Shown one piece after another: positions 1,511 to 14,843 of a stretch of 29,961 nt of DNA. Under the pieces are notes generated by a model. It made no database searches, was not told the DNA's origin, and saw nothing but the letters and a program-made list of their open reading frames with translations. How positions within the stretch are numbered: position 1 is the first letter of the stretch; each line of letters opens with the position of its first letter. The stretch comes from a virus, in the UHGV virus genome UHGV-0134758; one strand, 5' to 3'. A program made the position numbers and the translations under genes.

Positions 1511-1573
1511 AACATGACCGGTTGAGAAGTTACTTTGCATACCATTACCTCCTGACAACGTAGGAGGGAACTT

Positions 1574-1903
1574 GTGCTTGACACACAGGAATTAGCTCCA
1601 GTTGCTATTGCGCTCCTGCTTTCAGTAATTGGTGGGATAGGCACGTTCCTGATGGATGTCCGAGACGGTCGCCAGTCTGGCAATTTGTTGGGATTGGTTA
1701 CGGAGATCTTTGTTGCAGTGACAGCTGGCGCGGTGGCGTACCTATTGGGGCAACACGAGGGCTGGGAGTTATCAATTACGTACTTAATGGTAACGATAGC
1801 CAGCAATAACGGTCATGAGGTGATTTCAGGGATGAAACGAGTGAATATCGATAGCATTCTGAATGTTCTTACAAGTTTGGTGAAAAAGGGAGGCGGGAAA
1901 TGA
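1574..1903 (+). CDS. holin-like small membrane protein (position of P1 lydA)
   Basis: 109 aa with 2-3 hydrophobic helices (LAPVAIALLLSVIGGIGTFL, LLGLVTEIFVAVTAGAVAYLL) and a charged C-terminal tail KKGGGK. GTG start 5 nt after AGGAGGG. First gene of an operon of overlapping ORFs. Confidence 0.7.
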   Translation: MLDTQELAPVAIALLLSVIGGIGTFLMDVRDGRQSGNLLGLVTEIFVAVTAGAVAYLLGQHEGWELSITYLMVTIASNNGHEVISGMKRVNIDSILNVLTSLVKKGGGK

Positions 1904-2933: not shown

Positions 2934-4853
2934 ATGGAACAGTTCAATATCAATAAAGGGGTGACGATCAAGCCTGGGCTTGACGTGCTTCCCCCGCCAG
3001 TGACTGATGATGAATATCGCGCATTAATGGCCGGTGAGGACCGCTATCTGATGACGGAATCCAACACCCTGGAGGAAATCGAGGCTACGTTCTTCTATGA
3101 CACGCCGATCCACTGGTGTGCTACGGATTTACTGGAGGCGATTAGTTCTACTCGTTTGCAGTTACACCGGACCATGCAGGCATTTGTCCGGGCATTGAAC
3201 CAGAAGCTGAATGGCACCGGAATCTCTGCGGGGAGTGATAAAACGGGGGATGTGGCCCAGAGCGGCGCGCGCGCGATCGGCGGTGCTGAAATTGGCCGGG
3301 CACGGAACGTTAACGGGCTGCCGGTCCTGCCAGCCATTATTCCGCTCAGTGATGGTCAGACTATCAGCATTCTGTTTCATAGCCCGACAGCGGAAAACCG
3401 GATCACCAATAGCGATACGCTGGTTGCTTTCCAGTTCTTACTGAATAAAAAAGACGTTACTCACACCGTTGCTCCGATGAGTGGACGTGATATGACGCTG
3501 GCGCAGGTCACCATGAAACTTGCCAACCTTGCAGAGAAAAACTCGGCAAAATTTCAGCGTGCGCAGAAGAAGAAAAAAGCCCTGGTTGATGAAATAACCC
3601 AACTACAGGCTGACAGTGACCAGAAAGAGGATGCCATGAGCGACCTCGCGGATCAGGTGGCAGCGGTAGAAGGGCAGAAGGTAGATCTGGAGCAGAAAAT
3701 TAACGCTGTTGCATCGGAAGCGGATTCTCTTTATGAAGAGAATGAGCGTTTGCAGACGGAGATTGATCAGCTCAATCGCACTGGTGGGCGCGAAACCATT
3801 GCTCCTGCGGGGATGACTGGTGGACACTCTCGCGCGATGACGGATCGCCTTGCAAGTATCAAAAATCGTATGCATATGAACGGGGAAGTGACGCTCAGTA
3901 ATGGTGCATCAATGAAGCAATTCATTGAGGACGGTGAAGGGTATATCCAGTTAACCGATTCGGATGGCAGCGTGTACATGATCAAGGCTAAATCCATACA
4001 GGGTGTGGACATGGCAGAAGCGATCGGCAAGCTGTTTAAAGCCTATAAAGCGGGTAATGTATCGGAATATCTGGTCCAACCAGAAGAACATAAACCGGAA
4101 AACGTCGAACCTGAACCAGCGGAGGATACCGGTAGCTCTTCGCCTGAACCAGAAGTCTCTGTAGGTGCATATCGATATGCCCTGCAAATGCGTCCGGCGG
4201 CCCCTGGCGCAATACCTGAAGGTAACAAAGCAATTCTGCCGCGCCCTGATGAAGGTGACCCGTATTATGAATATGCACGCTACGGCATTGCTACTTACGA
4301 TACCCCGCTTTCTGATCAGCAAATGAGTGAGTACGACCTGAAGTTATTGCCTCGCGAGGATTCTTTCGACTTCCTGGCGAAGACACTTACTAATGGTCCG
4401 TTTGGCAAATATGCACAAAAAGCTCTGGAGCTGGCCACCAGCTCACCAGACGAGTTCCGCGTAATGCTGAAGACTCAGTTTCAAAAAACTTTCCCCAATA
4501 TTGCGTTTCCGGGGGGCGCTGGCACCGAGAAAATGGTGCAGAGCATGATCAATGCATTGCAGGCCGAAGTCGGTGAGATTACTCAGCCAGAACCGGCCCC
4601 GGCACAGCCTGATGAAACGGTTAGCGAAGCAGATGCAGAGGCTAATAAAGCCATTGAATATCTCAATAACGTGATGGATATGCAAAGCACTGACATGGCG
4701 GAGATCCGTAACGCCCGGGGCAATGTCCGGGAAGCGATTGCAGCCCTTCAGGCTGCCGGACGTTTTGAGGAAAACGAAGAGCTGGTTAATGGCGCTGCTC
4801 GCCACCTGGCTGATCTGCTGGTAGCAATCCAGAAAGCGGGGGTAGCGGCATGA
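2934..4853 (+). CDS. darA: DarA-like antirestriction / internal head protein
   Basis: 639 aa, the length I recall for P1 DarA. Start 1 nt after the hdf stop with AGGAAA upstream. Central coiled-coil, acidic Pro/Glu-rich linker. Lies between hdf and two further operon genes as in the P1 dar operon. Confidence 0.75.
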   Translation: MEQFNINKGVTIKPGLDVLPPPVTDDEYRALMAGEDRYLMTESNTLEEIEATFFYDTPIHWCATDLLEAISSTRLQLHRTMQAFVRALNQKLNGTGISAGSDKTGDVAQSGARAIGGAEIGRARNVNGLPVLPAIIPLSDGQTISILFHSPTAENRITNSDTLVAFQFLLNKKDVTHTVAPMSGRDMTLAQVTMKLANLAEKNSAKFQRAQKKKKALVDEITQLQADSDQKEDAMSDLADQVAAVEGQKVDLEQKINAVASEADSLYEENERLQTEIDQLNRTGGRETIAPAGMTGGHSRAMTDRLASIKNRMHMNGEVTLSNGASMKQFIEDGEGYIQLTDSDGSVYMIKAKSIQGVDMAEAIGKLFKAYKAGNVSEYLVQPEEHKPENVEPEPAEDTGSSSPEPEVSVGAYRYALQMRPAAPGAIPEGNKAILPRPDEGDPYYEYARYGIATYDTPLSDQQMSEYDLKLLPREDSFDFLAKTLTNGPFGKYAQKALELATSSPDEFRVMLKTQFQKTFPNIAFPGGAGTEKMVQSMINALQAEVGEITQPEPAPAQPDETVSEADAEANKAIEYLNNVMDMQSTDMAEIRNARGNVREAIAALQAAGRFEENEELVNGAARHLADLLVAIQKAGVAA

Positions 4854-11087: not shown

Positions 11088-11097
11088 TAACAAGTGA
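11088..11097 (+). promoter_or_regulatory. conserved 10-mer TAACAAGTGA, candidate phage late-promoter element
   Basis: Same 10-mer on the coding strand upstream of the portal candidate (plus coordinates 14824..14833, reverse complement); near-copy GACAAGTGAC upstream of the mat-position ORF (24304..24313, reverse complement). Each is followed about 6 nt later by an A/T-rich -10-like hexamer. Confidence 0.35.
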
Positions 11098-11197
11098 TTT
11101 GCATTATCCTGTGCCTTCTAAAGGGATCGAGTCAGTCGGTATTGGCTGTGAATGGGTGTTTGTCCTGGAGCGTAAAAAATTCTCTTATGAGGTCTTT

Positions 11198-14777: not shown

Positions 14778-14843
14778 TTAATTAGAATAATTCGCATCGT
14801 GTTTGAACGGAATTTAACACTAGTCACTTGTTAAGGATTACCA

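Follow-up and report, generated by a model that had tools for sequence, protein, structure and literature searches.

The Shine–Dalgarno sequence of lydA, the holin gene of a P1-like prophage, lies in the 3′ arm of a short RNA hairpin, the 5′ arm of which is placed at the predicted start of the late transcript. We propose that this hairpin works as a transcript discriminator of the type described for gene e of phage T4, and not as a throttle on the late message. The arguments for this reading are purely geometric and thermodynamic, and we give it a probability of about one half. The DNA in question, referred to here as the window, is the whole analysed stretch of 29,961 nucleotides from a virus genome (UHGV-0134758), to which all positions refer unless another accession is given; it is a P1-like (Punavirus) plasmid prophage.

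From position 1507 onward, the window is at least 99% identical at the DNA level to P1, P7, SJ46 and related phages, and the P1 annotation carries over: lydA (1574–1903, + strand), lydB (1900–2343, + strand), hdf (2321–2932) and darA (2934–4853) are found in the P1-type operon order lydA-lydB-hdf-darA. The first of these genes starts with GTG and encodes the canonical holin of P1-like phages, a protein of 109 amino acids that shares 99% identity with holins from P1-like elements of E. coli and scores 30.1 bits against the Pfam family PF16083 (‘LydA holin’; cut-off of 28.4). The first-pass annotation had described a holin-like gene with a non-ATG start; homology, the Pfam match and the label lydA or holin given to this open reading frame in the P1, P7 and SJ46 records all bear this out, and the GTG start is kept in all 11 distinct orthologue sequences. 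The antiholin gene lydB, the start codon of which overlaps the lydA stop codon (ATGA), matches PF16084 with an E value of 8e-104. In P1, the main canonical holin is LydA, and the cloned gene is lethal, LydB is the antagonist of LydA, and lydC, for which an early promoter has been reported, is positioned immediately before the dar operon (PMC9025707). In a published RNA-seq table of P1vir, lydA behaves as a late gene; lydC is omitted from that table.

Positions 1548–1576 read CCTCCT (1548–1553), GACAACGT (1554–1561), AGGAGG (1562–1567), GAACTT (1568–1573) and GTG (1574–1576). The distance from AGGAGG to the start codon is therefore 6 nt, and the 5 nt given in the first-pass annotation is obtained only if the additional G at 1568 is counted as part of the Shine–Dalgarno sequence. 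When 1540–1600 was folded with RNAfold, the stem over the Shine–Dalgarno sequence was both the minimum-free-energy and the centroid structure. The 6-bp pairing of AGGAGG with CCUCCU that had been seen by eye is thus real at the level of predicted structure, and a G1554–U1561 pair extends it to 7 bp: the 5′ arm is the anti-Shine–Dalgarno sequence CCUCCU(G) at 1548–1554 (about −5 to +2 relative to the late promoter LPdar), the 6-nt loop is ACAACG at 1555–1560 and the 3′ arm is (U)AGGAGG at 1561–1567, the lydA Shine–Dalgarno sequence itself, all on the + strand and with a total hairpin length of 20 nt. The free energy of the hairpin is −9.1 kcal/mol in isolation and −10.7 kcal/mol with its flanking bases. 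The stem is favoured in all contexts that start upstream: in every RNA that begins at 1548 or further upstream, the probability that the Shine–Dalgarno sequence is unpaired is approximately 0, and opening it costs 9–11 kcal/mol, or about 12 kcal/mol in the longest contexts. Extended by one base, the 5′ arm (ACCUCCU, 1547–1553) is identical to part of the 3′ end of 16S rRNA.

No Rfam 15 covariance model matched 1540–1600, and the two sub-threshold chance hits that were returned fell on a palindrome upstream of it only. We also considered, and rejected, two other roles for the structure. An intrinsic terminator for lydC does not fit a stem without a following U-tract, and a 5′-terminal stabilising hairpin would need transcription to start merely 1–3 nt past the −10 hexamer. 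A stem-loop close to the ribosome site of lydA, together with an antisense promoter within the gene, has reportedly been noted by Schmidt et al.; a consensus scan found no minus-strand promoter within lydA, and literature searches on a lydA antisense RNA or stem-loop returned unrelated papers only.

Where the late transcript starts is decisive for the proposed role of the hairpin. The −22 box of LPdar (AAGTTACTT, 1527–1535, + strand), a 9-bp inverted repeat that binds Lpa, is annotated in AJ000741 and NC_005856, and the −10 hexamer (TACCAT, 1540–1545, + strand) is likewise annotated in P1; both are identical here. The pattern of box, 4-nt spacer and −10 hexamer has three matches in the window, against 0.07 expected, and these are LPdar, LPlyz at 11092 and LPpro at 14811. 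The 4-nt spacing between box and hexamer is common to LPdar, LPmat, LPpro, LPlyz, LPs and LPsit; this layout is seen in five further late promoters from the first half of the P1 genome, with more annotated in the second half, in keeping with the shared architecture described for P1 late promoters (PMC10695390). The window counterparts of LPlyz and LPpro occupy 11092–11110 (+ strand) and 14811–14829 (− strand), respectively, and lyz and prt, the first genes after these promoters in P1, have no arm that sequesters the Shine–Dalgarno sequence.

The centre of the LPdar box is at 1531 and the box is named ‘−22’, which places +1 at 1553. PaskilA, the sole mapped start annotated in P1, lies 8 nt past its hexamer, and the analogous start for LPdar is also 1553. 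On the basis of this promoter geometry, the late lydA mRNA should start at about 1552–1554 (+ strand; about 31205–31203 in P1 coordinates), the seventh to ninth nucleotide past the −10 hexamer, and should carry at most 1–2 nt of the CCUCCU arm. Because such an mRNA would be essentially without the 5′ arm, the hairpin could not form on it, and with the arm missing the predicted cost of opening the Shine–Dalgarno sequence drops from 9–11 kcal/mol to about 3–6 kcal/mol, the range computed for RNAs with 5′ ends at 1552–1556 and three different 3′ ends. The leader of this mRNA is only about 21 nt long, so that any hairpin on the lydA Shine–Dalgarno sequence would straddle the transcript start, and the geometry is no independent evidence of selection.

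We hypothesize that the position of the anti-Shine–Dalgarno arm (CCUCCU, 1548–1553), at about −5 to +1 of LPdar, would allow lydA RNAs to be told apart by where they began. RNA that enters from upstream, whether from early transcription of lydC or from spurious or lysogenic transcription, would have both arms; the hairpin would form on this read-through RNA once the Shine–Dalgarno sequence had been transcribed, lydA would remain untranslated and the cell would be spared a lethal holin made prematurely or at the lysogen stage. RNA from an Lpa-activated start at about 1552–1554 would lack the 5′ arm, and its AGGAGG, largely free and 6 nt from the GTG codon, would support translation. Both the read-through RNA and the effect on translation are presumed in this model. 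As the stem would most probably block translation only on RNA begun upstream, we would rather call it an insulator, which keeps the holin from being made prematurely, than a throttle on lysis timing.

The DNA upstream of LPdar differs widely among P1-clade copies. In 75 of 96 of them (approximately 78%), a co-directional lydC-type open reading frame ends 13–29 nt before the −22 box; three sequence variants of these holin reading frames occur upstream of LPdar, and no terminator-like site was found in the interval between lydC and lydA in P1. About 20 nt upstream of the box (approximately 1507–1520 in the window) there is a mosaic junction, with promoter, leader and lydA constant and at least six unrelated contexts to the left: three lydC variants, a palindrome region and two with divergent minus-strand open reading frames. 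Through these varied joins, the lydA module meets many different transcription environments. In the window, lydC is replaced by unannotated, GC-rich and highly structured DNA, and a consensus scan of the window found no + strand gene or consensus sigma-70 promoter leading into lydA; the stem may here be an inherited part of the module that has little to act on.

The stretch that takes the place of lydC (1100–1515) is GC-rich, ORF-free and without RefSeq annotation. Of 5,426 complete E. coli genomes, 44 contain it, for the most part on P1-like plasmids; some copies carry an additional insertion of approximately 480 bp. An RNA of 221 nt over 1440–1660 folds with a z score of −5.55. Just upstream of LPdar, at 1466–1511, lies a near-perfect palindrome that is not in P1; each arm has 22 nt, and the core is perfect over 16 bp (CTTGACATCCTCCACG / CGTGGAGGATGTCAAG). 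Its left arm and loop (32 nt) match, at 100%, sequence found directly 3′ of E. coli IS200/IS605 tnpB (InsQ/TnpB), at NZ_CP018124 8743–8774 and NZ_CP027457 2196267–2196299, and the palindrome appears to be what is left of a hairpin from a transposon end or an omega RNA. Part of its right arm (TGTCAAGCA, 1503–1511) is a 9-nt perfect complement of lydA codons 1–4 (TGCTTGACA, 1575–1583) and could also pair with the start region on read-through RNA of this lineage; chance alone would give about 0.2 such pairs.

The discriminator reading has to be weighed first against the absence of any selected function, in which case the stem would be a chance or neutral repeat with a single origin in the P1-clade ancestor, retained because the whole module is young and conserved at about 99%. 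Against chance, the signal of the stem is moderate. The folding z score of the 61-nt segment 1540–1600 is −1.84; when the 47 nt upstream were shuffled, 21 of 1,000 sequences (2.1%) hid the Shine–Dalgarno sequence as strongly, and CCUCCU was present in 0.9% of such shuffles. The probability of such a stem by chance is thus about 1–2% for each gene, and as about 35 genes were scanned in the window, the stem is unusual, yet as a single case in 30 kb it is not beyond chance. We also ranked the 104 annotated genes of P1 by occlusion of the Shine–Dalgarno sequence, measured as the cost in free energy of opening positions −13 to −6. In this ranking, lydA is fourth, with 10.1 kcal/mol against a mean of 4.45 kcal/mol (s.d. 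of 2.63). Two other P1 genes, both without an obvious Shine–Dalgarno sequence, reach comparable values, which favours a neutral origin; the rank of lydA speaks against it, as does the identity of the top gene, pmgC, which likewise comes first behind a late promoter and is built in the same way.

Comparison among relatives lends the stem no phylogenetic support. In the P1 clade, 147 of 150 copies from IMG/VR and metagenome contigs have an identical stem, and each of the other three has a single-base variant: A1547C lengthens the stem, C1548A breaks the outer pair and A1569T lies outside it. None of the three is a compensatory change, which fits a stem without function, and the invariance of the remainder says little because the whole module is about 99% identical in this clade. 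Orthologues at 64–77% LydA identity, found in P1-like elements of Salmonella salamae, Cronobacter/Klebsiella and Pantoea, retain the late promoter, the GTG start, a hairpin over the start codon and ACACAGGAA after the GTG codon. The CCUCCU arm is missing from them, and the accessibility of the Shine–Dalgarno sequence shows no step between read-through and late RNA. That the stem is missing in all orthologues outside the P1 clade, although promoter and start codon are kept, again favours a neutral origin, and it means that the stem is not a general property of the LydA holin family. On the alignment of 11 orthologues, 55% of cells in the Shine–Dalgarno helix are paired and there are no double compensatory changes; with P1-clade copies nearly invariant and the distant orthologues lacking the arm, this material can yield no covariation signal. 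The only group recovered when viral contigs were scanned with a protein profile was the one that is 99% identical. In relatives with upstream sequence, cin is co-directional with lydA and ends about 80–95 nt before it, with no lydC; in P1, by contrast, cin is divergent and lydC lies in between.

Two further points weigh against a stem without function. The 5′ arm differs from the orthologues at about five positions together, and untimely expression of lydA is lethal (PMC9025707). On balance, we consider the absence of a selected function somewhat doubtful, though a serious contender.

The first-pass annotation had taken the occluded ribosome-binding site and the non-ATG start to imply translational restraint of lysis timing; in its explicit form, the functional lydA mRNA would contain the hairpin, which would act with the GTG codon to lower holin translation and delay lysis. 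Part of this stands, as the stem is stable and the Shine–Dalgarno sequence is fully occluded wherever the stem is present, which is the case on RNA from upstream, and the GTG codon is universal among the orthologues. What does not stand is a throttle on the late message: the claim overlooks the promoter, for with the −10 hexamer of LPdar at 1540–1545 the late RNA would lack the CCUCCU arm. A throttle would need a start at or upstream of 1548, only 2–3 nt past the hexamer, which clashes with the geometry of P1 late promoters, and the + strand of the window has no consensus sigma-70 promoter upstream that could provide such an RNA. Furthermore, the orthologues, which would need equal control of timing, are without the stem. 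We therefore regard a throttle by this hairpin as improbable. By blocking premature holin synthesis, the hairpin would still bear on lysis timing, but by a different logic.

Features that remain on the late message could offer some restraint of another kind. A second hairpin pairs CUUGUG (1571–1576, including the GUG codon) with CACAGG (1584–1589); it spans 1571–1589 on the + strand, has a free energy of −5.3 kcal/mol and is present in all transcripts. Over the 11 distinct orthologues, 92% of cells in this helix are paired, a point in favour of restraint on the late message, and there are no double compensatory changes. The sequence ACACAGGAA, which covers codons 4–6 of lydA, has synonymous sites that are invariant in all lineages. 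In short folds of the late mRNA, CUCCUGC in codons 14–16 (1613–1619, + strand) acts as an alternative partner of the Shine–Dalgarno sequence, a pairing that is not robust in longer contexts. The residual cost of opening the Shine–Dalgarno sequence on late RNA stems from non-robust pairing of this type, with CUCC(U) at 1595–1599 and at 1613–1619, and from the start-codon hairpin. Even without the stem, then, the late initiation region is structured, but compared with other P1 genes only moderately: among the 104 genes, late-type lydA RNA ranks 10th for structure at the start codon and 18th for the whole initiation region.

The start of the antiholin gene is far more strongly folded. The ATG codon of lydB at 1900 lies inside a 14-bp stem that is capped by a further 5-bp stem (1892–1950), the segment 1860–1965 folds at −33.6 kcal/mol with a z score of −2.84, and the lydB initiation region has the highest opening cost of the 104 P1 genes, at 22.8 kcal/mol. 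This predicted structure suggests that translation of the antiholin may be strictly coupled to that of the holin, and tight coupling of lydB could be another source of restraint on the late mRNA. If there is conserved restraint on that mRNA, the universal GTG start and the start-codon hairpin are more plausibly its sources than the stem over the Shine–Dalgarno sequence.

A role at the level of DNA is very improbable. In that reading, the repeat would be a palindromic protein site that covers the start point of LPdar and could, for instance, serve as an operator to shut off late transcription. In its favour is the inverted repeat itself, with perfect 6-bp arms on either side of an 8-bp spacer and a centre just past the predicted start. 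Against it, the repeat resembles neither the C1 operators nor the Lpa box of the P1 annotation, orthologues do not conserve it, there is no known candidate for a binding protein and one of the arms is simply the Shine–Dalgarno sequence.

The discriminator reading gains some breadth from two other late genes of P1, which lie outside the window. The strongest occlusion of a Shine–Dalgarno sequence among the 104 P1 genes is that of pmgC, the first gene after LPsit. Here, an 11-bp perfect inverted repeat (CTCGTAGAATC / GATTCTACGAG; NC_005856 46576–46626, minus strand) has the −10 hexamer TAGAAT in its 5′ arm and the Shine–Dalgarno sequence in its 3′ arm, and opening the latter costs 15.7 kcal/mol on read-through RNA against 5.8 kcal/mol on late RNA. 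LPpac/pacA (P1 90475–90529) is a weaker analogue, with 5.7 against 2.1 kcal/mol. Both pairs resemble LPdar/lydA in that the anti-Shine–Dalgarno arm lies within the late promoter and the Shine–Dalgarno sequence in the 3′ arm, with a step in accessibility between read-through and late RNA; they differ from it in function, as they are morphogenesis or packaging genes, and the stem of pmgC, being 11 bp and perfect, is far stronger. The more distant relatives of pmgC, in Serratia, Pantoea and Erwinia, have no late promoter at that position.

Overall, 3 of the 11 promoter-proximal late genes of P1 have this design (lydA, pmgC and, weakly, pacA). An opening cost of at least 10 kcal/mol is reached by 2 of these 11 genes and by 2 of the 93 others (Fisher’s test, P = 0.055), so that the enrichment of occlusion at promoter-proximal late genes is only suggestive. 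We tentatively put forward that P1 may reuse anti-Shine–Dalgarno arms within Lpa-dependent late promoters, at lydA, at pmgC in the tail/sit operon and, in weaker form, at pacA for the terminase. If the device does recur, late genes that are crossed by early or lysogenic transcription would be translated only from mRNA initiated at the late promoter, and P1 would have arrived by convergence at a sigma-70-based equivalent of the T4 gene e arrangement, for which we found no description in P1 in the accessible literature.

If the discriminator reading of the lydA hairpin is right, it would show how the host of a plasmid prophage can survive a lethal holin gene placed directly after DNA that is transcribed and variable; upstream of LPdar lies a hot spot of recombination, where at least six different neighbours occur. 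Late control in P1, usually told through Lpa-dependent promoters alone, would also gain a post-transcriptional layer. In practice, lydA RNA from upstream promoters would be poorly translated, a point relevant to the cloning or engineering of lydA and dar and to the reading of RNA-seq data from P1-like phage-plasmids, and changes at 1548–1553 would hit the promoter and the hairpin alike.

The closest parallel is found in T4, where early read-through RNAs of gene e, soc, gene 49 and I-TevI hide the ribosome site in a hairpin, whereas late promoters in the 5′ arm yield mRNA that can be translated (McPheeters et al. 1986 for gene e, as reviewed in PMC3014915). As in gene e, the Shine–Dalgarno sequence of a lysis gene would be held in a hairpin on upstream RNA, late RNA would be without the arm and premature lysis would be avoided. 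The promoters differ in type, that of P1 being Lpa-dependent and sigma-70-based, with a −22 box and a −10 hexamer, and that of T4 using gp55 and TATAAATA. Unlike gene e, lydA encodes a holin and not a lysozyme, its stem is shorter (6–7 bp) and conserved in one closely related clade only, and the case is known here from sequence and folding.

A similar logic operates in the fold-back inhibition of IS10 and IS50, in which RNA that reads in from an outside promoter includes a complement of the ribosome-binding site, whereas the transcript of the element itself starts downstream and is translatable; there, the gene is a transposase gene in an insertion sequence and not a phage late gene, which makes the two cases analogous and not homologous. 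In phage lambda, the sdi stem-loop at the ribosome-binding region of the holin gene S affects translation and lysis timing by setting the ratio of the S105 holin to the S107 antiholin. The likeness to lydA is that a holin gene has a stem-loop where ribosomes bind; lambda S has two starts, whereas lydA has a single GTG. A dual start of the lambda type was accordingly rejected for lydA, as the N terminus of LydA is M-L-D-T-Q-E, the next in-frame start is Met27 and the antiholin is encoded by a separate gene, lydB. Set beside these systems, the lydA hairpin is probably a new case of a type of control that is already known.
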